Shown: positions 3,592-31,764 of the stretch, one piece after another
Layout of the letters: each line of letters opens with the position of its first letter
How positions within the stretch are numbered: position 1 is the first letter of the stretch
IMG/VR virus record: IMGVR_UViG_2711768046_000005
Source of the DNA: a virus
Lineage: Duplodnaviria; Heunggongvirae; Uroviricota; Caudoviricetes
Length of the DNA stretch: 35,930 nucleotides
Reading direction: 5' to 3' (one strand)
Position numbers and translations under genes: made by a program
The notes under the pieces: model-generated
What the model was told of the DNA's origin: nothing
The model's database searches: none
What the model saw: the letters and a program-made list of their open reading frames with translations, nothing else

Positions 3592-6039
3592 TTAACCGTC
3601 ATGCATCATGCTGGCACGGGCGCGCGCACGTTTATCCCGCTCGTATTTTTCGAGCGCATCCTGTAACTGGCGGTCGAGCTGTGTTCCCGGTGCATTACCA
3701 CCCGGCAGGCTGATGTGATATTCGTTTTTACTCTGGTCTACATACGAGCGGCCAGCCGGTGCCGTGACCGGCTGGTAAGCCTGATAGCCTGCATAAGAGC
3801 TGGTCGCCGGAATATAACCACCTGTGCCATACGTGGCGGCATGAGTTCTGGCGGCAGTCTGGTCAAGTGCGTCAGACTCTTTGTTGATGACGCCGAGTTT
3901 TTCCAGTACCCAGTCAATACCGCTGCGCAGTTTGTTGAACGCATTAAGCGGCAGCATCAGCGCGTCAGCCAGTGCCTGCCCGAACATGACGCCCGTGTCA
4001 CGGCAACGGTTCAGGGTGTCCTGGGTGGCTTTGACCGGGGCAATCAGGTTTTTAAACCACTGCCACGCGGCCTGTAACTTTTCGCCCAGCCAGTCAAACA
4101 CCGGTTTCAGTGGCGAGAACAGCTCCCCCACCGGCGCAAATGCTGCTTTCAGCCCTTCAACCACACCACCAAAGAATGCGCTGACAGGCTCCCAGTATTT
4201 ACGGATAAGCAACGCCCCGGCGACAATGGCAGCCACCACAGCCACAACCGGCCAGCTAATAGCCCCGATGGCGGTCATAACAGCACTGCCAACCGTCGTG
4301 AAGATTGCCCCCATTGCGCCTGCTGCCGCGATGATGGCATTGATGCCGGTGATAACCGGCCAGGCTACAAGACCAATTGCACCGATGATGCCAATCAGCG
4401 CCAGCGCGCCACCGGCAATGAGGCCAATGGTTGACGCCAGTGATTTGTTTTTCTTGATCCAGCCGTCGAGTTTTAACACATACTTTGTGGCCGTCTGCGT
4501 GAGATTACGCAGTGCGCCTTCCTGCTGGTCAAACAGGTCAGTCCCCACCGCCTCATAAGCAGACTGAAACTCCTTAAAGTCACCGCCGAGGTTATCCTGC
4601 ATGATATTTACCAGCTCGGCGGTCTTCCCGTCTGAGGCTTTAAACGCAGCGGTCAGTTTGTCCAGCTTTCCGGTTGAGGCGGCAGTCATCAGCACGGCGG
4701 CGGCTGAGCTGGCTTCCTCCCCGAAAATGGTTTTCATGTATTCAGCCTGCTGGGCAGTACCGAGCCGGTTTTTCTCAAAACTGGCCTGCATTTCTTTCAG
4801 AATGGTAAATACTGGTCGGGTGTTTCCCTTACTGTCTGAGGTTTTCACGCCAAGCTCTTTGAGTGCATCCCATGCTTTTCCCGTCGGTGCCTGCAGGCGA
4901 CTTAACACGGCACGGCTTCCCGTCCCCGCCATTGAGCCTGTGATTTTTGCATCATGCAGCGCTCCGACCATTGCGGCGGTTTCTTCAATGCTGACACCGG
5001 CATTTTTTGCCACAGGTGCAGCATAGGTCAGCGCATCGCTCATACCGTCAAAATCGGCGGCGGTTTTGTTCATCGTCATGGAGAGAACATCCCCGATATG
5101 AGCGACCTTATCGTTTGAAAGCTGAAAGGCGGATTTCATCCCCATCAGCAGGGCAGCGTTTTCTTCCATCGTGCGACGGTTCGCCAGCGCCATATTCAGC
5201 GTGACCGGCGTTGCCGCCTGAATGGCATCAACATCCCCACCGGCTTTCGCAATAATAATCTGCGCACCGGCTGCATCATCTGCCGAGGCGGCGGTATTGT
5301 CGCCGAGCTGGCGCGCCTGTTTGCGTAGTGCAGCCATTTCGGCGGAGTCTTTTGCCACTCCGAGCACGGCCTGCAATTCTGAGTTTTTCTGCGCAAACTC
5401 ATAACCGGGCATCAGCAGCTTAACTCCGGCCATCGTTCCCGCCGCCGCAATCCCCACACCGGCAGCGCCCACCGAGGCCATATTTCCGGCCAGTTCCTTG
5501 CCTGCCTGATAACGCTGTTTGACTGCGTTAAGTTTTGCCTGTTGCGCACTGACACGCGCCAGCGCGTCGCGCTGACGGTTAAGCTGTGCGGTGGTTTCAC
5601 TGATACGGTTTTTCAGTCCCTGCTCATCATGTGCAAGATTGCGGGTATTAATTCCCACAGCGGCCAGTTCCCGTTGCTGGCGTTTAACGGAATCCGTCAG
5701 GTGGTTACATTTCGCCTGTAAGTCCTCCGCCGCACGCTTTGCGGATTCCAGCACTTTCGCCTGAGCACGGGTCGGACGTTCGGTGTTTTTAAACTGTGTG
5801 GCAAGGGCTTCGGCTTCCTGCCGTGCCTTTTCAAGTGCATGACCAGTCACGGCAAGCTGTGCGCTGGTCTTGCGAAATCCCTCAATACGGGATGCGTGAC
5901 CGTTCAGCTCGCGCAGTGATTTTTGTGTTTCCCGGATATCCCCCGACAGCGACTTACTCGCTGTGCGGATGGATTTAAACGGGCGGGATGCCTGGTCAAC
6001 AGCCCTGAGCAATACCTGTAATTTTACATTGTTACTCAT
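3592..6039 (-). CDS. T: Tail tape measure protein T
   Basis: 815 aa, P2 gpT length. Coiled-coil N-terminal half and Gly/Ala-rich hydrophobic segments typical of tape measure proteins. Confidence 0.9.
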   Translation of the reverse strand: MSNNVKLQVLLRAVDQASRPFKSIRTASKSLSGDIRETQKSLRELNGHASRIEGFRKTSAQLAVTGHALEKARQEAEALATQFKNTERPTRAQAKVLESAKRAAEDLQAKCNHLTDSVKRQQRELAAVGINTRNLAHDEQGLKNRISETTAQLNRQRDALARVSAQQAKLNAVKQRYQAGKELAGNMASVGAAGVGIAAAGTMAGVKLLMPGYEFAQKNSELQAVLGVAKDSAEMAALRKQARQLGDNTAASADDAAGAQIIIAKAGGDVDAIQAATPVTLNMALANRRTMEENAALLMGMKSAFQLSNDKVAHIGDVLSMTMNKTAADFDGMSDALTYAAPVAKNAGVSIEETAAMVGALHDAKITGSMAGTGSRAVLSRLQAPTGKAWDALKELGVKTSDSKGNTRPVFTILKEMQASFEKNRLGTAQQAEYMKTIFGEEASSAAAVLMTAASTGKLDKLTAAFKASDGKTAELVNIMQDNLGGDFKEFQSAYEAVGTDLFDQQEGALRNLTQTATKYVLKLDGWIKKNKSLASTIGLIAGGALALIGIIGAIGLVAWPVITGINAIIAAAGAMGAIFTTVGSAVMTAIGAISWPVVAVVAAIVAGALLIRKYWEPVSAFFGGVVEGLKAAFAPVGELFSPLKPVFDWLGEKLQAAWQWFKNLIAPVKATQDTLNRCRDTGVMFGQALADALMLPLNAFNKLRSGIDWVLEKLGVINKESDALDQTAARTHAATYGTGGYIPATSSYAGYQAYQPVTAPAGRSYVDQSKNEYHISLPGGNAPGTQLDRQLQDALEKYERDKRARARASMMHDG

Positions 6040-6459
6040 TCGTGTTTCCGCTTCGCCGGAGCGCCTTTTCGCGCCATGTGATGAGTTCGGTCAGGCTCAT
6101 GGGATACAGTTCTGATGGCGGCCAGTGAAATATCACTGCCACATCCGCCATCAGGTCATCGACCGAGAGATTTTTCGGAAACGTCACTGCACCGAGTTCG
6201 GCGACAAAAAACCGACCACCTTACCGGCCAGCGCCACAAGGTCAGGCAGTTCCAGCGCAGCGACTTCCTGCTCGGTCAGCATCGGTGCCGTCATGCGCGG
6301 CAGCACCTTAATCAGTGCATCGACTTCGGAGTTCGCGACCGCTGCCAGACTGACACCGCGCAGCGTCCCGGCATTGGGTTTCATCAGCGTGACCTGTTCG
6401 ATAACCTGCTCACCACGTTTGACCGGATTGTCCAGGGTAATGACATTTTCTTTGTTCAT
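6032..6459 (-). CDS. Tail assembly chaperone E+E', made by a programmed -1 frameshift at 6205..6211
   Basis: Hand translation: after GGT TTT TTG (G-F-L) a -1 shift continues VAELGAVTFPKNLSVDDLMADVAVIFHWPPSELYPMSLTELITWREKALRRSGNTNE to TAA at 6032..6034. Total is 142 aa, the P2 E+E' length. Confidence 0.7.
6184..6459 (-). CDS. E: Tail assembly chaperone E
   Basis: 91 aa, P2 gpE length and position upstream of T. Confidence 0.85.
   Translation of the reverse strand: MNKENVITLDNPVKRGEQVIEQVTLMKPNAGTLRGVSLAAVANSEVDALIKVLPRMTAPMLTEQEVAALELPDLVALAGKVVGFLSPNSVQ
6205..6211 (-). other. Slippery heptamer T_TTT_TTG for the E/E' -1 ribosomal frameshift
   Basis: X_XXY_YYZ heptamer in the E reading frame, 7 codons before the E stop. 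The -1 frame is open through to the T start region. Confidence 0.7.
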
Positions 6460-6515
6460 GGTTTTCTCACTTCTGAATCGGGGTTAACCGGTCAGCCAGG
6501 CTGACCGGATGAAAA

Positions 6516-7034
6516 TCACAGGCCGATATTGCGGCGGTGTTGCTCCAGCCGGTCGACGCCGTTCACCTTCTCAATCATGTTGATGGTGTCGATTTCGACC
6601 AGCTCCTTACCGTCCATCGTCAGCCGGAAATAGGTGCAGACCACGGAGATTTTCGACTCGGTGTCTTCTCCCTGTTTGCCCTCGCCGGTGTCGATTTCTT
6701 TCTGACGTCCACGCATGACCACCTCGACGGCCACCGTTTCGCCGGTATCGTCGCGCTGGTAAGAGCCTGCAAAACGAATCGGTACGGCATCCACACCGGT
6801 TGCGGCGTAAAGCTCCCAGATAACCGAATCCGGGAAGCCACCGAGCGACCACTCCATTGACAGCGCATCGTCATCAAGGCCGAGGTCTACCGGTGCGCTG
6901 CCGTTCATCCCCGCACCGCGATAGTTTTCGAGCTTACGGGTCAGTTTTGGTAGCGTGACGGACTTCGCGACGCCCTGATAGCTGTAGCCGTTCAGAAAGA
7001 CGTTCATTAACTTGAGTTTGCGCGGCATTGCCAT
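6516..7034 (-). CDS. FII: Tail tube protein FII
   Basis: 172 aa, P2 gpFII length and position. Confidence 0.9.
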   Translation of the reverse strand: MAMPRKLKLMNVFLNGYSYQGVAKSVTLPKLTRKLENYRGAGMNGSAPVDLGLDDDALSMEWSLGGFPDSVIWELYAATGVDAVPIRFAGSYQRDDTGETVAVEVVMRGRQKEIDTGEGKQGEDTESKISVVCTYFRLTMDGKELVEIDTINMIEKVNGVDRLEQHRRNIGL

Positions 7035-7046
7035 CGGTCAGGCTCC

Positions 7047-8237
7047 TTAATTGCTGTTAACCGAGGTGACCAGATTTGCCAGGTATTTATCGGTAATACG
7101 CTGGCGCAGGGTCAGGTTTTCAAGAGGAGGCACCGGTGTATAGTCGTAGTCGATATACAGTTTTCCGGCCTTGAGGGTTTCCGCATCGTTGGATTCTTCG
7201 CTGAACCAGCAGGTCGCATCCACGATATAGCCGTTTGTTTTCAGCTCACGGAATTTGGCATTGATGCCGTCAACGATGTCGCGAATCAGCGTTGCGGTGA
7301 TGGGCTTGTCCACCGCCCACATGTGCGCCTCAGCCATCGTGTCGGCCATCACCTGCGCGGTGCGGGTGTAGTTTTCAAAGAGGAACAGCGGGTCATCAGA
7401 GCAGGTACGGTTACCCCAGAAGCGGAAACCGTCGCGGCGAATCAGCGTTGTGACGCCTGCCTCGTTCAGCAGGTCAGCATCGGTGCCGGACTCCTGCAAA
7501 TCCCAGAATACAGATGCGCTGATGCCGGTAACACCGTTTACCCCGACGTTGGACAGCGTTTTATGCCAGCCCTGCTCCTGGTCGATTTTAGCACGCAGCC
7601 CCAGCGCACGGGCGGTGGCATACGCGGTGGCGGTAGTGCTGCTGACCGTATCCCATGCGAGGAAATCCGGCCAGATGACCATCAGCTCACGCTGGCTGAA
7701 ATTCTGGCGGTAGGCTTTCACCTCGGAAATGGTTTTACAGCCCCATGCGCTGATATACCCGAAAGCGCGCAGCTTCTGACAGACTGATGCCAGTGCAACA
7801 GCCACCTCTTTGGTGTCCAGTCCCGGCACGCCGAGAATACGCGGTTTAACACCGGTTACCGACTCTGCCGCCAGCAGGGCTTTCAGTCCGGTATACTGAC
7901 CGTTTTCGTCAGTGGTGCCGATGATATTGGAAACGGTCTGCGCGAGTTTCGTTTCTTCGTCGTCGCCGGTGCCGTCTTCAACACGCACGACAACGGTGAC
8001 CGGTTTTGACTGGTCAGCGATGGCCTGCAACGATGCCGCCAGCGTGCCTTTTTTACCGGCCTTTGCAATTGCGCTCTGCACATTGGTAATCAGCACCGGT
8101 TTATTGAGGGGGAAGGTTTCCGCATCCGCATCGCTGGCCGTGCAGACCATGCCGACAATGGCAGTGGATACAGTGGAAATGACGCGGGTGCCGTCGTTAA
8201 TCTCCAGCACCTGCACGCCGTGATGATAGTCACTCAT
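7047..8237 (-). CDS. FI: Contractile tail sheath protein FI
   Basis: 396 aa, P2 gpFI length and position. GGAG Shine-Dalgarno upstream. Confidence 0.9.
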   Translation of the reverse strand: MSDYHHGVQVLEINDGTRVISTVSTAIVGMVCTASDADAETFPLNKPVLITNVQSAIAKAGKKGTLAASLQAIADQSKPVTVVVRVEDGTGDDEETKLAQTVSNIIGTTDENGQYTGLKALLAAESVTGVKPRILGVPGLDTKEVAVALASVCQKLRAFGYISAWGCKTISEVKAYRQNFSQRELMVIWPDFLAWDTVSSTTATAYATARALGLRAKIDQEQGWHKTLSNVGVNGVTGISASVFWDLQESGTDADLLNEAGVTTLIRRDGFRFWGNRTCSDDPLFLFENYTRTAQVMADTMAEAHMWAVDKPITATLIRDIVDGINAKFRELKTNGYIVDATCWFSEESNDAETLKAGKLYIDYDYTPVPPLENLTLRQRITDKYLANLVTSVNSN

Positions 8238-22847: not shown

Positions 22848-24620
22848 ATGACCATCACCACAGACACCACTCTTTTACACGACCCGCGTCGTCAGGCGGC
22901 GCTGCTGTACTGGCAGGGGTTTTCCGTGCCGCAGATTGCCGCCATGTTGCAGATGAAACGCCCGACGGTGCAGAGCTGGAAACAGCGCGACGGCTGGGAC
23001 AGCGTTGCCCCCATCAGCCGTGTCGAAATGAGTCTGGAAGCGCGACTGACCCAGCTCATCATCAAACCGCAGAAAACCGGTGGTGACTTCAAGGAAATTG
23101 ACCTGCTCGGACGCCAGATTGAACGACTGGCACGGGTAAACCGCTACAGTCAGACCGGCAACGAGGCAGACCTTAATCCGAACGTCGCTAACCGCAACAA
23201 AGGCGGGCGTCGCAAACCGAAAAAGAATTTTTTCAGTGACGAGGCCATCGAAAAGCTGGAGCAGATTTTCTTTGAGCAGTCTTTCGACTATCAGTTGCAC
23301 TGGTATCGCGCCGGGCTTGAGCACCGCATCCGCGATATCCTGAAATCCCGCCAGATTGGCGCGACGTTTTATTTTTCCCGCGAGGCGCTGCTGCGCGCCC
23401 TGAAAACCGGCCATAACCAGATTTTTCTGTCGGCCAGTAAAACGCAGGCGTATGTGTTCCGCGAATACATCATTGCCTTTGCCCGGCTGGTTGACGTTGA
23501 CCTGACCGGTGACCCGATTGTCCTGGGCAATAACAGCGCAAAACTGATTTTTCTCGGCACCAACTCCAACACCGCACAGAGCCATAACGGCGACCTGTAC
23601 GTCGATGAGATTTTCTGGATCCCGAATTTTCAGGTACTGCGTAAGGTGGCATCAGGTATGGCCTCACAGAGTCACCTGCGCTCGACCTATTTCTCCACCC
23701 CGTCCACGCTGGCGCACGACGCCTACCCGTTCTGGTCGGGTGAACTGTTCAACCGGGGACGCGCCAGCGCCGCCGAACGCGTGGAAATCGACATCAGTCA
23801 TAACGCCCTTGCCGGAGGTCTTCTCTGTGCGGACGGCCAGTGGCGGCAGATTGTCACCATTGAGGACGCCCTGAAAGGTGGCTGCACGCTGTTCGACATT
23901 GAGCAGCTCAAACGTGAAAACAGCGCCGACGATTTTAAAAACCTGTTCATGTGTGAATTTGTTGACGATAAGGCGTCGGTGTTCCCGTTCGAGGAGCTGC
24001 AACGCTGCATGGTCGACACGCTGGAAGAATGGGAAGACTATGCGCCGTTTGCCGCCAATCCGTTCGGCTCCCGCCCGGTATGGATTGGTTACGACCCGTC
24101 ACACCGTGGCGACAGCGCCGGATGCGTGGTGCTGGCACCGCCGGTGGTGGCCGGTGGCAAATTCAGAATACTTGAGCGTCACCAGTGGAAAGGCATGGAC
24201 TTTGCCACCCAGGCTGAATCCATCCGCAAACTCACCGAAAAATACAACGTCGAATACATCGGTATTGATGCCACCGGCCTCGGTGTCGGCGTGTTCCAGC
24301 TCGTGCGCTCGTTCTATCCCGCCGCGCGCGACATCCGCTACACGCCGGAAATGAAAACCGCAATGGTGCTCAAGGCAAAAGACGTCATCCGCCGTGGCTG
24401 TCTGGAATATGACGTCAGCGCCACCGACATCACCAGCTCGTTTATGGCTATCCGCAAGACCATGACCAGCAGCGGACGCAGCGCCACCTATGAGGCCAGC
24501 CGCAGCGAGGAAGCCAGCCACGCCGACCTCGCCTGGGCGACCATGCACGCCCTGTTAAATGAGCCACTCACCGCCGGTATCAGCACCCCGCTGACATCCA
24601 CCATTCTGGAGTTTTACTGA
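22848..24620 (+). CDS. P: Terminase large (ATPase) subunit P
   Basis: 590 aa from the internal ATG (MTITTDTTLLHDPRRQ...), with GAGG ribosome-binding site. P2 gpP length. Divergent from O. Confidence 0.9.
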   Translation: MTITTDTTLLHDPRRQAALLYWQGFSVPQIAAMLQMKRPTVQSWKQRDGWDSVAPISRVEMSLEARLTQLIIKPQKTGGDFKEIDLLGRQIERLARVNRYSQTGNEADLNPNVANRNKGGRRKPKKNFFSDEAIEKLEQIFFEQSFDYQLHWYRAGLEHRIRDILKSRQIGATFYFSREALLRALKTGHNQIFLSASKTQAYVFREYIIAFARLVDVDLTGDPIVLGNNSAKLIFLGTNSNTAQSHNGDLYVDEIFWIPNFQVLRKVASGMASQSHLRSTYFSTPSTLAHDAYPFWSGELFNRGRASAAERVEIDISHNALAGGLLCADGQWRQIVTIEDALKGGCTLFDIEQLKRENSADDFKNLFMCEFVDDKASVFPFEELQRCMVDTLEEWEDYAPFAANPFGSRPVWIGYDPSHRGDSAGCVVLAPPVVAGGKFRILERHQWKGMDFATQAESIRKLTEKYNVEYIGIDATGLGVGVFQLVRSFYPAARDIRYTPEMKTAMVLKAKDVIRRGCLEYDVSATDITSSFMAIRKTMTSSGRSATYEASRSEEASHADLAWATMHALLNEPLTAGISTPLTSTILEFY

Positions 24621-25654
24621 TGAGCAAGAAAAAAGGGAAAACACCGCAACCTGCGGCAAAAAAAATGACCGCCAGCGCCCCGAAAATGGAGGCATTCACC
24701 TTTGGTGAGCCGGTGCCGGTACTCGACCGCCGTGACATTCTGGATTACGTCGAGTGCATCAGTAACGGCAGATGGTATGAGCCGCCGGTCAGCTTTACCG
24801 GTCTGGCGAAAAGCCTGCGTGCTGCCGTGCATCACAGCTCGCCGATTTACGTCAAACGCAATATTCTGGCCTCGACATTTATCCCGCATCCGTGGCTTTC
24901 CCAGCAGGATTTCAGCCGCTTTGTGCTGGATTTTCTGGTGTTCGGTAATGCGTTTCTGGAAAAGCGTTACAGCACCACCGGTAAGGTCATCAGACTGGAA
25001 ACCTCACCGGCAAAATATACCCGCCGTGGCGTGGAGGAGGATGTTTACTGGTGGGTGCCGTCCTTCAACGAGCCGACAGCCTTCACGCCCGGCTCCGTGT
25101 TTCACCTGCTGGAGCCGGATATTAATCAGGAGCTGTACGGCCTGCCGGAATATCTCAGCGCCCTTAACTCTGCCTGGCTGAATGAGTCGGCCACGCTGTT
25201 CCGCCGCAAGTATTACGAAAATGGCGCACATGCCGGATACATCATGTACGTCACCGATGCCGTGCAGGATCGCAACGATATCGAAATGCTTCGCGAAAAC
25301 ATGGTTAAGTCGAAAGGCCGCAATAACTTTAAAAATCTGTTTCTCTATGCCCCGCAGGGGAAAGCCGACGGCATTAAAATTATCCCCCTCAGTGAAGTGG
25401 CGACGAAGGACGATTTTTTTAATATCAAAAAAGCCAGCGCCGCAGACCTGCTGGACGCGCACCGCATCCCCTTTCAGTTGATGGGCGGCAAGCCGGAGAA
25501 CGTCGGGTCGCTGGGTGATATTGAGAAAGTGGCAAAGGTCTTTGTCCGCAATGAGCTTATCCCGCTACAGGACAGGATCCGCGAGATAAACGGCTGGCTC
25601 GGTCAGGAGGTCATCCGCTTTAAAAACTACTCACTGGACACTGACAACGGCTGA
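24620..25654 (+). CDS. Q: Portal protein Q
   Basis: 344 aa, P2 gpQ length. Start overlaps the P stop. Confidence 0.9.
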   Translation: MSKKKGKTPQPAAKKMTASAPKMEAFTFGEPVPVLDRRDILDYVECISNGRWYEPPVSFTGLAKSLRAAVHHSSPIYVKRNILASTFIPHPWLSQQDFSRFVLDFLVFGNAFLEKRYSTTGKVIRLETSPAKYTRRGVEEDVYWWVPSFNEPTAFTPGSVFHLLEPDINQELYGLPEYLSALNSAWLNESATLFRRKYYENGAHAGYIMYVTDAVQDRNDIEMLRENMVKSKGRNNFKNLFLYAPQGKADGIKIIPLSEVATKDDFFNIKKASAADLLDAHRIPFQLMGGKPENVGSLGDIEKVAKVFVRNELIPLQDRIREINGWLGQEVIRFKNYSLDTDNG

Positions 25655-25969: not shown

Positions 25970-27037
25970 TCATTTCTTAGCTTTCACAACCGGATGCGCG
26001 CGATCATGTCCACCGCCACGATGCTTAGAAAATATAACCTTTTCATTAGTAAAAGGTTTTTGGCCATAGACACTATCATAGTGGAAAAAGACGTTCGGAA
26101 GATGAGGCACACGGATGAATCCATACTTCACTCTAGTATCACCGATGACCCCAAAAACCCTTGTACTTACTGGGTAGCATAGTTCACCACAACGCATCAC
26201 TAATTCATCTGCTGTTGGGCGTTCAGAAGGTTCCAATTTTAAACAATCTTCTATAAGTTTAATTATTTCATTTGCCAATGGCGCATACTGTCTATTTGAA
26301 AATATAAAGTCAGGGTAAGGAACATGCGTGCCAGAAAGTATTTTTGGTATAGCCATATAACCAATACCAAAAGGGTATTTTCCAGTAAGAATCCTGAACA
26401 TCATCGCACCCAATGCCCAAATATCTGTAGGTTTCGAAACCTTACCTTGACTCTGTATGATTTCCGGTGCCATATATGGCAAAGCCCCGATAGCCGTTTG
26501 CGAAGAACTAATTGAATCTTGACCATTTCTTGCAGCCTCATCAATTTCATCTCCGGCCATCTTTGAAATGCCGAAATCCGTAATTTTTATCTCTGTAGCA
26601 TTGATACCACCGCCTACCATTATATTTGAAGGTTTGAGGTCCCGGTGTATGACGTCAACATGATGCGAAGCAGACAGAGCTTTAGCTAAATTATGAAATA
26701 TTTTAGCAGTTAAATATGGATCAACACTTGAATAAGTGTCTAAAATAGCCTTATCCAAGTCAACTCCATCAATAAATTCCTCCGTTAAAAACTCTCTACC
26801 CTCATCATCAATGAAGTAATCTAAGGTTTTAGCCACATTAGGATGATTAACCCTTGATGCTAATATTGCACTTCTATGAAACCTTTTTTCAGCAGATTTA
26901 TTTTTGGGAGTTTTGAGAGCCACATGCCTCGAGAGAATATTATCCATTGCCAAATAAACTTTTTGCATACCGCCTTCACCAATCTCCCTCAATATTGTAT
27001 ATCTGCTAACTTGAATTCCTGGAGTCAGATTTATCAT
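25970..27037 (-). CDS. Hanks-type Ser/Thr protein kinase with C-terminal cold-shock-like OB-fold domain (third gene of the cargo operon)
   Basis: 355 aa. Kinase motifs GEGGMQKVY, VALK, HRDLKPSN, DFG, PYMAPE and DIWALG are all intact. C-terminal aa 292-338 (FGVIGDTRVKYGFIRV...NVFFHYDSV...EKVIFS) resemble CspA RNP1/RNP2. GGAGG ribosome-binding site; ATGA overlap with the upstream gene. AT-rich. Confidence 0.85.
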   Translation of the reverse strand: MINLTPGIQVSRYTILREIGEGGMQKVYLAMDNILSRHVALKTPKNKSAEKRFHRSAILASRVNHPNVAKTLDYFIDDEGREFLTEEFIDGVDLDKAILDTYSSVDPYLTAKIFHNLAKALSASHHVDVIHRDLKPSNIMVGGGINATEIKITDFGISKMAGDEIDEAARNGQDSISSSQTAIGALPYMAPEIIQSQGKVSKPTDIWALGAMMFRILTGKYPFGIGYMAIPKILSGTHVPYPDFIFSNRQYAPLANEIIKLIEDCLKLEPSERPTADELVMRCGELCYPVSTRVFGVIGDTRVKYGFIRVPHLPNVFFHYDSVYGQKPFTNEKVIFSKHRGGGHDRAHPVVKAKK

Positions 27038-28098
27038 AACACCACCTCCGGATGGGAAAGGTCAAATGTAATGAAGACCCGCTCTTTTCTTGGCCGAGAA
27101 GTCTCTCCCAGAATAATAACACATGAATCAGGCAAAATATTATATTGCTTTGCAGCTATATTATTCACATACACCTCACCACTTAAACTCGATATATAAA
27201 ACTCTGAACCAGAATATTTCACCTCAATAGTCCCGACCCCTGAATTATTAAAAGCCGCAGATTTATTTGTTGAAGAAATGATGACGGGTGGAGTGTTATC
27301 AGAGATTAACAATGCTCTATGAGAGTTGTAGAGAACGAATTTTTTTAGAGTCTGACACACATCAGCCATATCAGGTCTCTCACAAGGATTCGTATCTAAA
27401 CATTGGAAAAGCAATTCTTTTACCTGAGTTGGTAACTGTATATTAGAATTATCAAAAGGATTAGACAATAATTTTTTGGGTAAAACTCTCATTTCCGGTG
27501 GTAGTGGGGTCTTAGCCAAAAACATGGCCGTTACAGCAAAAGCATATGTATCTATGGATTTTGTAAACGCTACTTGATGTAAAAATAATTCAGGTGCAGC
27601 ATATGTTGGGGTTCCTTTAAAACCTATTGTATTAGCTTCATCAACATTTCTAGATAGTCCGAAGTCATAAATCTTCACTACTCCCTCAGAATCAATTTTC
27701 ATGTTCCCAGGCTTGATATCCCTATGAATAATATCATGAGAATGTATCTCAGAAATACCCGAAGATATTTGCCACAAAATTTTAATCAAATCTTCAGAAT
27801 TTAATATGCGATCCTCTACTTCCAATAATGAAGGTCCGTCAACATACTCTTCGACTATAGCAATTCCTTTACCTTGATAATTAATAACATCATAAAGCTC
27901 TACTACATGTTTTGATCTTAATTTCATCAATGCTGATAACTCATCCATCATTCGAGGAGAATCATCAGGATTACTTATGGACTTTATAGCGACAAATCTT
28001 TCGAGGTGAGTATCCAAGCATTTGATCACGCAACCAAATCCTCCCGAAGCCTCTTCTTCAGTCCTCTTATATCTTGCAGGGAGAGTAAAATTAGTCAT
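27034..28098 (-). CDS. Hanks-type Ser/Thr protein kinase with C-terminal FHA-like region (second gene of the cargo operon)
   Basis: 354 aa. Kinase motifs SGGFGCV, VAIK, HRDIKPGN, DFG and GTPTYAAPE are intact. C-terminal aa 262-345 have an FHA-like pattern (SLSGEVYVNN...ILPDSCVIILGE) but lack the canonical Arg/His. AAGGAG ribosome-binding site; 8-nt overlap with the phosphatase gene. Confidence 0.85.
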   Translation of the reverse strand: MTNFTLPARYKRTEEEASGGFGCVIKCLDTHLERFVAIKSISNPDDSPRMMDELSALMKLRSKHVVELYDVINYQGKGIAIVEEYVDGPSLLEVEDRILNSEDLIKILWQISSGISEIHSHDIIHRDIKPGNMKIDSEGVVKIYDFGLSRNVDEANTIGFKGTPTYAAPELFLHQVAFTKSIDTYAFAVTAMFLAKTPLPPEMRVLPKKLLSNPFDNSNIQLPTQVKELLFQCLDTNPCERPDMADVCQTLKKFVLYNSHRALLISDNTPPVIISSTNKSAAFNNSGVGTIEVKYSGSEFYISSLSGEVYVNNIAAKQYNILPDSCVIILGETSRPRKERVFITFDLSHPEVVL

Positions 28099-29257
28099 CT
28101 TTATCTCCTTTAGTGGAGTTTTTCTCAGAGAATGAAATATCTAACTGTGAAATATTATCTAACTTATCATTATTGTTAGCTTCGATAACATTCCTTCCCT
28201 CATCACTCTTTATATTACTATTTTTTTTCTTTGTACGTGATTTCCTTTTCGATACATTTTTTTTGTTAGAAATTTCATTACTGCATTCTAACTCAGTAAC
28301 TTTTCTATCAATAACATTTTCAACCGTAGCTGAGTTAGGTATATCTAACGGCGCAGGTTGCACGCTAATTACTTTCATCTCACCAAAAGGATCCCATAAA
28401 TTAATTACATCCCCAGATGATACATCCAAAGCACTTAGGATGTTCGAAATCTCAACTACCGCAATCGACGCATTATCAAATCCACCAAACCAACTAGCTA
28501 GATCTATAACTCTTTTAGCGAACACTCCAGTATTATTGGAGTGAGCATATAATTTTCTCAAATTATTACTGTCAATGGTATGAGCACCATCTGAAGTTAA
28601 TGCAACCACCCCAGGTACGAGCCGAATATCGTGAAAATGTATCTCAAGAACACCATCAAGACCTATAAACTGTACTAACTCGCCACCTAACCTAGAATCA
28701 ATAACACCTGAGTCACTACCAAGATGCTCATTATATTTCTTTGCCAATACAGCTAATGTATCATCCTCACTAATTTGTTTTATGTGTTCAGCATTAATGG
28801 AATATATGCGACTATCCCCGACATTTATTGCTGTAATGTTATCGGAGTCATCTACAGCTAAGGCAGATAACGTAGCCCCACCGTTCCCATTATATACTTT
28901 CAAAACCGATTCATTTGCTTTTAAAACGGCGATTTCAAGACATTGTCTAATTGGCAAGCCTGAGTGTTTAATTATCTCGGTAAAAAAAGATGATACGGTC
29001 AATGAAGCAGCATTCGCTCCCCCTTCCATCCCCCCCATACCATCTGCTAAAGCGATGACAATCATGTCCTTATTCTTACTAAAAGGACGAAATTTTAATA
29101 CAGCTACCCGGTCTTGGTTCTCTTTCCTAACTAAACCTATGTCTGTAGCAATAGCTGCAGGTAGCATAGATACTCTTCGTACAGATGAAGAGATATTTTT
29201 TCTATGCAGCCAAGCGTGTATCTGTTCATGAAGGATCTCGTAAGAGTCTCGACTCAC
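28091..29257 (-). CDS. PP2C-family (PPM) Ser/Thr phosphatase with Lys/Asn-rich low-complexity C-terminal tail (first gene of the cargo operon)
   Basis: 388 aa from a GTG start with AGGAGG upstream; an alternative ATG start lies at 29167. PPM motifs TDIGLVRKENQDR, ALADGMGG, NVGDSRIY, LTSDGAHT and DNASIAVV are present. The tail (aa 272-388) is rich in K, N, S and D. Confidence 0.8.
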   Translation of the reverse strand: MSRDSYEILHEQIHAWLHRKNISSSVRRVSMLPAAIATDIGLVRKENQDRVAVLKFRPFSKNKDMIVIALADGMGGMEGGANAASLTVSSFFTEIIKHSGLPIRQCLEIAVLKANESVLKVYNGNGGATLSALAVDDSDNITAINVGDSRIYSINAEHIKQISEDDTLAVLAKKYNEHLGSDSGVIDSRLGGELVQFIGLDGVLEIHFHDIRLVPGVVALTSDGAHTIDSNNLRKLYAHSNNTGVFAKRVIDLASWFGGFDNASIAVVEISNILSALDVSSGDVINLWDPFGEMKVISVQPAPLDIPNSATVENVIDRKVTELECSNEISNKKNVSKRKSRTKKKNSNIKSDEGRNVIEANNNDKLDNISQLDISFSEKNSTKGDKDD

Positions 29258-29478: not shown

Positions 29479-31764
29479 CTATATACATCGTTGATTTATT
29501 GGAAGCCCCGGCCACTCATCAACAACCGGATATGTAAATTTTTTCTCGCCATATGCCACCCTCGCACCTCGTGCTAGTACATCCAGCTCCCACCGTTCCG
29601 GCGTGATGCCATGCTGTGCGAGGTCAAACCGGATACGCGATATCTGGTCGCGCTGCGATTTAGTCAGCCTTGCCGATGGCGCAATTTCATTAGGTTTTAA
29701 CGGGCCTCCGTTTCTCTGCTGACGATTTGGTGTTCTCAGGCCGTGTTTTAATGCGCCCCTGAGCGCCCTCACTACATCCGGGTCATTCCATTCGATAACA
29801 CCTTCATCAACCAGATTAAGTACTGCTGCGGCGTGCTCAGAAGGTGTGGGAGCCGGTAACGAAGTATCACCACCAGTGAGCTTTCCACAGTTATTGACAG
29901 GACTCCGAGGCGCGACGATGCCGCTTTTTAAAGTCAAAGGCTCAACGACCGGAACTTTCGGCACAATGCGCCAGTCCGTCGTTCTGGTGATATGAATATG
30001 ACGCGCGCCGAGATGCGGCGCGTAAATGCCGACCACTCTCTCGACTTCTTCCTCGTACTCGTTAACTTCATCCGACGGGCTACGGGCGACTCTGACAGTC
30101 TGACAATCGCGCGGGACATTTGCCCCACCCTGCGCGCTGATATACAACGCAAAATCACCACTGTCTGCGGCGGCGCGTGCAGCCTCGACGCGCTCGTCAA
30201 ACTCATCAGCAATGCTGACGCCGCGCGGCAATTTGCGTAGTTCACGGTAAGCCCCCATTGTCGGCAGGCCAACCGTTTTAAATTGCGGGATGCGCCACGT
30301 TGACGCCCATGCGGTAACAGCCGCTGCAGTGTCTTTCAGCGGCCTGCCGGTGTCGTTATCGAGCTGACCATCCAGTGCATAGCCGTCGATGTTTTTTGAA
30401 ATGTATTTCGCGATATATCCCGCAGCACCGCCCCGGTTAAGGTGTTTTGCCTGAAAACGGTTTCGCGCGGCTCCTCTTTCGTCGCCATCCTCTTTGAGCG
30501 CATAGCGACGCATGATTTCGATAATCTGGTTACGCTGGCGTGAATTACAAAAAAGCATCATATGCCAGTGCGGCGTTCCGTCGTGGTGTGGCTCGACGAC
30601 ACGCAAACCGTAGACCTGTAAATCATTATCCTTGAATGCCGTGCGCATCAGGCTCCAGATACGGCAGAGATAACGCTGCGCATCCTTTGGATTAAATGCC
30701 TCATCGTTCCAGCCGTGATTAAGCTGCACGGTTTTACTTTCGCCTTTTCCTACCTGACGTGTCGGGTGATACTTTGACGGCGCGGTCAGCGTGATAAACA
30801 TCCCCACATCACCCTCTGCAGCGGCGTAACGCTCAATACCGGCAATGGTGTTCATCAGCTCCATCCGGCGAATTTCAGGATTAGAAATACTGCCCATCAC
30901 CTTACTGATAAGGTCGATGCGCTCGCCGGTTTCCCTGTTTTCAAGGTCACACGATTTAAGAAATTCCAGATTTGCCTGGCGGCGCGCACGCACATCACGA
31001 ATGGCGTGTTTACTGGCATAAGGAGAACGGTCTTTATTGACCTCCCCGACAGCTATCAGTAACGCTTCATGCCAGCGCATACGCTGGCCTTTAAGCTGAT
31101 GAGTCCACCACTCATCGTTAAACAGACGGGCAATGGCAGAATATGCCTGCCTCGTGGTCATCTGTCCTTTACGGTATTTTTTCCAGTAGAGCGGGGAAAT
31201 ATTGAAAGCACGTGCAGCGCCAGCAACATGACCATACAGGTGAGCCTGCGCCTCATCCGTAAACAGCGATTCTTTTTCACCATGCGCATCAACCCATGCA
31301 TCGCAGAGTTCCTCATACATCATGAAAAGCTGCGATGAGATACGGGCGGCAAACTTTTTCAGCTCCTTGTCATTCATTCCCGGCAGGCGCGCATAGTGGT
31401 CACGCTCTGCCAGAAACAGCAACGACGCGTCGGTGTTCATTTCATGGCGCTGATTCACACGCTCAATGCGCGGCCATAAACGACGCTGAAAAGTAGATGT
31501 GAGGAAATAAAACCCGTGCACCGGGCTTTTATTGCGCCGGATGTAGTCATAGCGTGAAGTAAACAGCGAGCGCAAAAAGTAAGGCAGGCGGTTAATCGTG
31601 GATAAAACACCTTGCACCTGACGCATCTCGTCACGTGTAAGAGGTCTTTCGCGCCCGACAGCCTCGCGTGGCGCGTTCCATGCATAAGCACCGGTAAATG
31701 CCTTACCGGTGCCTGCGGTAAATGCTGACGGAGGGACAAAACACCCGGAGGCTTTAACGGCCAT
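29479..31764 (-). CDS. A: Replication initiation protein A (rolling-circle nickase)
   Basis: 761 aa from the internal ATG (MAVKASG...), P2 gpA length. Conserved HxH nickase region (EPHHDGTPHWHMM) and active-site Tyr region (AGYIAKYISKNIDGY). Confidence 0.9.
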   Translation of the reverse strand: MAVKASGCFVPPSAFTAGTGKAFTGAYAWNAPREAVGRERPLTRDEMRQVQGVLSTINRLPYFLRSLFTSRYDYIRRNKSPVHGFYFLTSTFQRRLWPRIERVNQRHEMNTDASLLFLAERDHYARLPGMNDKELKKFAARISSQLFMMYEELCDAWVDAHGEKESLFTDEAQAHLYGHVAGAARAFNISPLYWKKYRKGQMTTRQAYSAIARLFNDEWWTHQLKGQRMRWHEALLIAVGEVNKDRSPYASKHAIRDVRARRQANLEFLKSCDLENRETGERIDLISKVMGSISNPEIRRMELMNTIAGIERYAAAEGDVGMFITLTAPSKYHPTRQVGKGESKTVQLNHGWNDEAFNPKDAQRYLCRIWSLMRTAFKDNDLQVYGLRVVEPHHDGTPHWHMMLFCNSRQRNQIIEIMRRYALKEDGDERGAARNRFQAKHLNRGGAAGYIAKYISKNIDGYALDGQLDNDTGRPLKDTAAAVTAWASTWRIPQFKTVGLPTMGAYRELRKLPRGVSIADEFDERVEAARAAADSGDFALYISAQGGANVPRDCQTVRVARSPSDEVNEYEEEVERVVGIYAPHLGARHIHITRTTDWRIVPKVPVVEPLTLKSGIVAPRSPVNNCGKLTGGDTSLPAPTPSEHAAAVLNLVDEGVIEWNDPDVVRALRGALKHGLRTPNRQQRNGGPLKPNEIAPSARLTKSQRDQISRIRFDLAQHGITPERWELDVLARGARVAYGEKKFTYPVVDEWPGLPINQRCI

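Follow-up and report, generated by a model that had tools for sequence, protein, structure and literature searches.

A kinase that ends in an FHA-like domain raises the question of whether that domain binds phosphothreonine and so links the kinase to a second kinase encoded beside it. The stretch of DNA analysed here (the window) comprises 35,930 nucleotides of a virus of the class Caudoviricetes (IMG/VR record IMGVR_UViG_2711768046_000005) and carries three adjacent genes, encoding a PP2C phosphatase, a serine/threonine kinase (the middle kinase) and a second serine/threonine kinase. A first-pass annotation of the window tentatively assigned positions 27315..27064 on the minus strand, which are residues 262–345 of the 354-residue middle kinase, to an FHA-like region, and proposed that this region could dock the first kinase onto the autophosphorylated second kinase or its substrates in a two-step cascade gated by the phosphatase. 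The coordinates and reading frame proved correct by translation, and the same coding sequence is annotated in RefSeq, where 14 complete E. coli genomes contain an identical copy.

The middle kinase is the PfkB-type kinase of a kinase–kinase–phosphatase (KKP) module, and the region forms its C-terminal domain. The module is a toxin–antitoxin and anti-phage system carried as cargo by an E. coli P2-like prophage. The KKP system, the FHA label of this tail and the part of the tail in coupling both kinases are already published (Guo et al., Nat Commun 2024, PMC11341870). Only the following is new: the tail, as a minimal and degenerate variant of the FHA fold, has no canonical phosphothreonine pocket and escapes Pfam. 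It probably serves the PfkB-type kinase as a docking module that works independently of phosphorylation.

Predicted fold and sequence resemblance to FHA domains

Residues 252–354 were modelled with AlphaFold2 from a 54-sequence alignment as a confident all-beta domain (pLDDT, the predicted local distance difference test, 91.5; predicted template modelling score, pTM, 0.82) with the 11-stranded beta-sandwich of the FHA/SMAD type. The modelled strands span residues 262–266, 269–274, 280–285, 289–295, 300–307, 309–311, 326–330 and 341–347, together with short bridges, and profile alignments assign 289–295 to beta5, 300–307 to beta6, 309–311 to beta7, 326–330 to beta10 and 341–347 to beta11. FHA domains were the top matches in a Foldseek comparison, with weak statistics (best E 8e-3, TM-scores 0.5–0.6), and the matches included phospho-independent YscD/PscD domains, while a fold search of the BFVD viral structure library gave nothing meaningful. 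Structure prediction and structure comparison therefore agree on the FHA-like fold that had been proposed, rather than on an unrelated one, and on these models the assignment is firm and the resemblance appears well past chance.

The resemblance in sequence is much fainter. Pfam recognises the catalytic domain of the middle kinase (Pkinase, residues 18–249, E 1.7e-42) and nothing in its last 100 residues at E ≤ 1. The FHA model PF00498 gave no match at E ≤ 10, and hence none at its curated threshold, for the tail from the window, for its 54 homologues or for the PfkB(MP) construct from the literature, while all ten textbook FHA domains used as controls (Rad53 FHA1, GarA, Chk2, FhaA, Ki67, EmbR, Rv1747, NBS1, RNF8 and OdhI), matched it with 48–75 bits against a cut-off of 20.7. 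Yop-YscD_cpl and the other Pfam models of the SMAD/FHA clan were likewise without a match at E ≤ 10 to the tail and its 54 homologues, a tail-profile search of 177,635 PDB sequences found no FHA domain and only chance matches to ribosomal proteins (E > 0.2), and the name FHA is absent from the source annotations of all family members.

When the tails were compared directly with the control domains, similarity emerged in the distal half, equivalent to beta5–beta11 of a canonical FHA domain (hhalign, P 0.003–0.0007, probability 10–27%; HMMER, 7–8 bits in a single comparison). In the best alignment, 'EI.YDG..F....VSGEV.INN.......LPGSCV..LG' falls on FhaA 'LEIRWDGQVALLADLNSTNGTTVNNAPVQEWQLADGDVIRLG'. 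The motif quoted in the first-pass annotation (S-x-SGE-VYVNN...L-PDSCVIILGE) is present at S303–E332, and both hhalign and HMMER align it to the canonical 'TxVN...L..GD.I.iG'. As judged from these profiles, the similarity to FHA domains is real but faint, and by itself lies below the level of a database search.

Two ways of extending the alignment towards the N-terminus were considered and rejected. The global hhalign alignment of the N-terminal half has near-zero confidence and places the last helix of the kinase on an FHA strand. An HMMER register with H260-x-A262 on the 'H-A' of SxxH-A (5.6 bits) leaves one strand in excess after beta5, and H260 also precedes strand 1, at the opposite end from the binding loops.

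Chance similarity of a generic small beta-sandwich, in a domain unrelated to FHA, would fit the lack of a database-level sequence match to any FHA family, the weak Foldseek values and the empty search of the viral structure library. This explanation is nevertheless very improbable, as the independent profile alignments agree on the beta5–beta11 register and the motifs EI.(Y/W)DG, VNN and L..(G/S)(D/C)VI.LG are common to the tail and the FHA domain of FhaA.

The tail of PfkB has been labelled as FHA (PF00498) and described as a phosphopeptide-interaction motif (PMC11341870). In current Pfam, by contrast, the construct printed in the supplement of that study and all members of the family are unmatched, and because the published construct has no PF00498 match at E ≤ 10, the label must rest on structure. 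The label of a phosphopeptide-binding PF00498 domain is thus irreproducible at the sequence level, even for the published construct.

Loss of the phosphothreonine-binding apparatus

In canonical FHA domains, the stretch from Gly-Arg to His consists of strand beta4 between the Arg and Ser-x-x-His loops, and one sheet is ordered beta4–beta3–beta5–beta6–beta9. This stretch spans 13–26 residues, while in both models of the kinase tail the strands 280–285 and 289–295 are only three residues (S-G-V) apart. Given this tight hairpin onto beta5 and the textbook topology, strand 280–285 would therefore occupy the place of beta3, and we infer that beta4 is the lost strand, together with both of its flanking loops. 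The turn is followed by a Gly in nearly all tails (G289, 53 of 54), and the residue after it is variable (S, E, K or T) and not Arg.

Each defining sequence feature of a phosphothreonine-binding FHA domain was looked for, and none was found in the aligned tails. Gly-Arg followed by Ser-x-x-His 8–35 residues on occurs in 0/54 tails versus 10/10 control domains, which extends to the whole family what had been remarked of the single kinase. No conserved Arg stands where the beta3–beta4 loop would supply the phosphate contact, and HMMER places the canonical His of the beta4–beta5 loop on the variable T290. The beta6–beta7 loop, which carries the Asn of S/T-x-N-G in canonical domains, is reduced to S306-G307-E308, two residues shorter, and HMMER treats the S-T of the canonical STNG loop as an insertion with respect to the KKP profile. 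Position E308 is Glu or Asp in 54/54 tails, and [ST]xN[GP] is found anywhere in only 6/54 tails versus 9/10 controls. The proposed phosphothreonine dependence is consequently not supported, the Arg, Ser/His and Asn positions being absent under every alignment and the beta4/loop stretch being cut to three residues.

The tail shares its beta5 'EI.(Y/W)DG', beta7 'V-N' and beta10 'L..GD.I.lG'-like motifs with canonical FHA domains (Rad53 FHA1, Chk2, FhaA/Rv0020c, GarA and EmbR) and, like the domains of Chk2 and Rad53, forms one protein with a Ser/Thr kinase. It differs from them in lying C-terminal to the kinase domain, whereas the canonical FHA domain is N-terminal, and in the missing Gly-Arg, Ser-x-x-His and loop Asn, the three-residue turn in place of beta4 and its flanking loops, and the short beta6–beta7 loop with a conserved Glu. 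In making protein contacts through an FHA/SMAD fold without the canonical phosphothreonine residues it would resemble the cytoplasmic YscD/PscD domains of type III secretion and the SMAD MH2/IRF association domains. However, these are weaker structural matches to the tail than canonical FHA domains are, and their partners and context are unlike those of the KKP tail. The tail also has no sequence kinship to Yop-YscD_cpl (no Pfam match), whereas most of the control FHA domains do match that model.

Conservation and extent of the tail family

The family of tails spans down to 43% identity over the full length of the kinase. Within the distal motif, N312, N313, V327 and G331 are invariant in the 54 tails and G307, V309, P323 and C326 show conservation of at least 90%; H260, A262, Y295, R340, T344, D346, S348 and P350 are also invariant. 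Only 280 clusters were returned at E ≤ 0.001 when the profile was run against 1.84 billion representative proteins. The domain seems restricted to PfkB-type kinases, as far as the sequences indicate, because among the 150 clusters listed it always forms the extreme C-terminus of proteins of ~335–370 amino acids or of shorter fragments ending in the domain.

Residues 340–354 are the best-conserved stretch of the tail and may be a docking or phospho-acceptor element. The last residues gain order once the kinase domain is included in the model, their pLDDT being 42 for the isolated domain and 72 for the full-length protein. In the full-length model (pLDDT 91.4), the kinase and tail domains are joined by a linker of six residues with a pLDDT of ~94. 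With a pTM of 0.88 for the full-length chain, of which the kinase domain makes up 72%, the orientation of the two domains is therefore predicted to be fixed, and the tail would be rigidly packed on its own kinase lobe.

Identity as a KKP module

The published KKP module consists of PfpC, PfkB and PfkA (Guo et al., Nat Commun 2024, PMC11341870), and such modules were recognised as co-oriented PP2C, Pkinase and Pkinase triplets of 900–1300 bp per gene (methods, PMC11341870). The triplet in the window agrees with this description in gene order, orientation, sizes (1167, 1065 and 1068 nucleotides for the PP2C gene, the middle kinase and the second kinase, all on the minus strand) and Pfam content (PP2C_2, Pkinase and Pkinase). 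Its PfkB-type kinase has the C-terminal FHA(-like) domain, its PfkA-type kinase ends in a cold-shock-like tail with a GFI motif, and it is located on a mobile element, in the low-GC island that separates the portal and gpA genes of a P2-family prophage. The S1-like match of the PfkA-type protein in the window is weak (E 0.084), while among 48 PfkA-type homologues an S1-like match was found in 40 and a match to the cold-shock domain (CSD) model PF00313 in 27 (best 5.2e-8).

KKP has been reported at more than 1200 loci, E. coli and P2 prophages among them, and in P2 prophages it adjoins Phage_GPA and Phage_portal genes (PMC11341870). Compared with the KKP of the P. aeruginosa MPAO1 Pf6 prophage and its orthologues in P2-, P4- and Mu-like prophages, the module in the window has the same PP2C–kinase–kinase order, overlaps and sizes, the same gpA–portal site known from P2-type prophages and a partner kinase that likewise carries a GFI-containing cold-shock-like tail, and its PfkB-type tail shares 37% identity with the published PfkB(MP) 'FHA' construct (E 3e-24). 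It represents an E. coli P2-prophage variant, which may be distinct from the tested KKP(EC039).

The PP2C and middle-kinase genes overlap by 8 nucleotides (28091–28098) and the two kinase genes by 4 nucleotides (27034–27037, ATGA). These overlaps suggest translational coupling, which could set the PfkB:PfkA:PfpC ratio, a ratio reported to be important for toxicity (PMC11341870).

The middle kinase has homologues in Pseudomonas zeae, in Pseudoalteromonas and in a metagenome-assembled genome (MAG) of the Pirellulales that lie in the same triad, with successive products of ~370, ~351 and ~358 amino acids, and the Pseudoalteromonas copy adjoins an integrase. In the Pirellulales (Planctomycetota) MAG, the triad occupies positions 3882–7138 of DATAXP010000105.1 with a GpA-nuclease gene nearby; its kinase is 45% identical to the middle kinase of the window, and its first gene has no recorded Pfam PP2C match. 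A search of contigs with the alignment of the full-length kinase returned only unrelated kinases of 26–36% identity, through generic kinase motifs.

Coupling of the two kinases

Experiments on the KKP(MP) of P. aeruginosa indicate how the tail may act. Either kinase alone was non-toxic and without appreciable target phosphorylation, while both together were toxic and phosphorylating; mutating HRD or DFG in one kinase left toxicity in place, which was relieved only when both kinases were mutated, and truncation of either C-terminal tail or mutation of GFI abolished it (PMC11341870). Pull-downs and AlphaFold2 modelling supported kinase–kinase and FHA–CSD contacts, and an isolated His-'FHA' construct co-purified with CSD-Flag, with no kinase domains in the constructs (PMC11341870 and its supplement). 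The KKP kinases phosphorylate many host proteins, only when both are present with their tails. PfpC is the antitoxin, and that of an E. coli KKP is subject to inhibition by T4 Gp59. Neutralisation of the joint toxicity by the phosphatase and protection against lytic phage were demonstrated for other KKP modules (PMC11341870), including that of E. coli 15EC039, whose proteins are MCM8848563-65. The need for the tail, the co-purification of FHA and CSD, the redundancy of the catalytic sites and the antitoxin role of the phosphatase have thus been established in the literature for orthologues.

These findings bear on the first-pass annotation in different ways. Coupling of the two kinases by the tail is retained as a docking role, to which the orthologue truncations and the FHA–CSD co-purification point, and its phosphothreonine dependence is not supported. 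Gating by the phosphatase is in line with the antitoxin role reported for PfpC, while the two-step cascade is disfavoured by the toxicity that persists when either kinase carries an HRD or DFG mutation (PMC11341870).

On the reading we favour, and consider probable, the KKP PfkB-type kinase has in its tail a degenerate FHA-fold docking module that acts independently of phosphorylation. The tail would sit rigidly on its own kinase lobe and bind the partner kinase, PfkA, at its cold-shock-like tail, and this FHA–CSD contact would hold the two kinase domains together as a heterodimer in which each activates the other. The activated kinases would then phosphorylate many host proteins, and the PP2C phosphatase would reverse the activation until a phage protein inhibits it. 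We infer independence from phosphorylation because the binding apparatus has been lost and tail constructs devoid of kinase domains co-purified; the rigid intramolecular packing is a prediction of the full-length model.

A working phosphothreonine-binding FHA domain, docking the kinase on its autophosphorylated partner or on substrates in a two-step cascade reset by the PP2C phosphatase, is improbable. It would account for the FHA fold of the tail and for the phosphopeptide-interaction label given by the authors of the KKP study, and both kinases do carry phosphosites, with substantial autophosphorylation requiring the two together (PMC11341870). However, the canonical phosphate-contacting positions are all absent across the family, their loops have been deleted or cut short and the loop that remains has a conserved acidic residue. 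Moreover, either kinase can be dead with toxicity kept, which leaves no obligatory upstream kinase, and the tails co-purified in constructs that had no kinase domains (PMC11341870). Because the canonical phosphate-binding apparatus is absent family-wide, models of KKP activation should not presuppose phosphothreonine-dependent docking.

Somewhat less doubtful, though still unlikely, is that the tail has another target, either a phosphorylated ligand bound at a non-canonical site (R335, R340, S306 and N312/N313) or host substrates, such as nucleoid and replication proteins, that it recruits. R340, N312 and N313 never vary among the tails, a basic residue is usual at position 335, the phosphorylation of many host proteins occurs only with both kinases and their tails (PMC11341870), and some solved FHA-fold domains bind outside the phosphothreonine site, for example Rad53 FHA1 with the Dbf4 BRCT, which was among the structure matches. 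In contrast, N312 aligns to the structural Asn of the canonical 'VN' rather than to a ligand contact, there is no direct evidence for such a target, and the published modelling and pull-downs favour the PfkA tail as partner (PMC11341870).

Several observations count against phosphorylation-independent docking by a degenerate FHA fold. Conserved basic residues lie near the beta10–beta11 loop (R335, which is R or K in 47/54 tails, and the invariant R340), position 279 in the loop between strands 2 and 3 is mostly basic, and together these three positions could form a non-canonical phosphate site. PfkB(MP) is phosphorylated at T261 and T319 (PMC11341870), in or beside the domain, and the contact may therefore still be regulated by phosphorylation. 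The mass-spectrometry score of CSD-Flag in the FHA pull-down was low (-10lgP 23.61; PMC11341870), and the experimental data all come from orthologues rather than from the window's own proteins. The evidence for the loss of beta4 consists of the secondary-structure string, the lengths of the loops, the profile alignments and textbook topology, and the N-terminal half of the hhalign alignment carries near-zero confidence.

A further, tentative possibility is that the KKP tail constitutes a distinct FHA-fold subfamily without beta4 and the phosphothreonine pocket, repurposed either as a phospho-independent adaptor for cold-shock/OB-fold domains or as a reader of phosphate at a new site formed by R340 and its neighbours. 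If true, either repurposing would be an undescribed way to assemble or gate a bacterial two-kinase toxin.

Prophage context

The features of the module and its flanks are collected in Table 1. Terminase, capsid, portal, gpA replication endonuclease, cox and integrase genes, as named in RefSeq, identify the window as a P2-family prophage. The gene triplet forms a low-GC cargo island in this E. coli P2-like prophage, with the portal gene on one side and gpA on the other; GC content (the fraction of guanine and cytosine) is 0.36–0.39 across 26001–29000 versus 0.54–0.58 outside. A promoter scan found signals no more frequent than in shuffled sequences.

Table 1 Coordinates of the KKP module, its predicted domains and motifs, and the flanking prophage genes
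Feature	Position	Strand	Remarks
P2-type portal gene, island flank	24620..25654	+	RefSeq 'phage portal protein'
Second kinase gene (PfkA-type)	25970..27037	-	Pkinase E 4.7e-45
Cold-shock/S1-like C-terminal tail of PfkA-type kinase	25973..26170	-	GFI motif and profile matches
G306-F-I308 motif of PfkA-type tail	26114-26122	-	G306 invariant; F307 and I308 at least 90% conserved
Middle-kinase open reading frame	27034-28098	-	354-amino-acid Ser/Thr kinase; same coding sequence annotated in RefSeq
C-terminal domain with predicted FHA fold, residues 256-354	27037..27333	-	Contains 27064-27315
C-terminal strand/tail R340-x-F-I-T344-F-D346-x-S348-H-P350-E-V-V-L	27037..27081	-	R340, T344, D346, S348 and P350 invariant
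Distal motif S303-SLSGEVYVNN...LPDSCVIILG-E332	27103..27192	-	Equivalents of beta6 end, beta7 and beta10
Three-residue turn S286-G-V and G289	27232..27243	-	Predicted to replace GR loop, strand beta4 and SxxH loop
Kinase catalytic domain, residues 1-255	27334..28098	-	VAIK, HRD, DFG and APE all present
PP2C phosphatase gene (PfpC-type antitoxin)	28091..29257	-	PP2C_2 26.7 bits, cut-off 24
P2 gpA-type replication endonuclease gene, opposite island flank	29479..31764	-	RefSeq 'replication endonuclease'

Megablast against deposited phage genomes gave no matches, and tblastn found just three phage records, all distant. The PADLOC library (v2) contains no KKP model and gave no match at all for the PP2C protein, which RefSeq names 'PP2C family protein-serine/threonine phosphatase', while both kinases matched generic kinase models alone (mad6, PD-T4-6 and MkoA). 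Automated defence annotation would miss or mislabel the module at 25970–29257. Pfam, PADLOC and RefSeq are currently blind to the tail domain and to the KKP triad, and such loci appear as generic kinases.

The same prophage carries a second low-GC cargo gene at 8752–10086 on the plus strand (444 amino acids, GC ~0.36), flanked by a tail sheath-like open reading frame (7047–8237) and tail-fibre open reading frames (10317–13020). An FRG domain was recognised in its product (PF08867, E 2.8e-22), which also matches PDC-S15, a candidate defence system of PADLOC (E 6.7e-99). Probably the gene is another defence cargo, occupying the other P2 hotspot.
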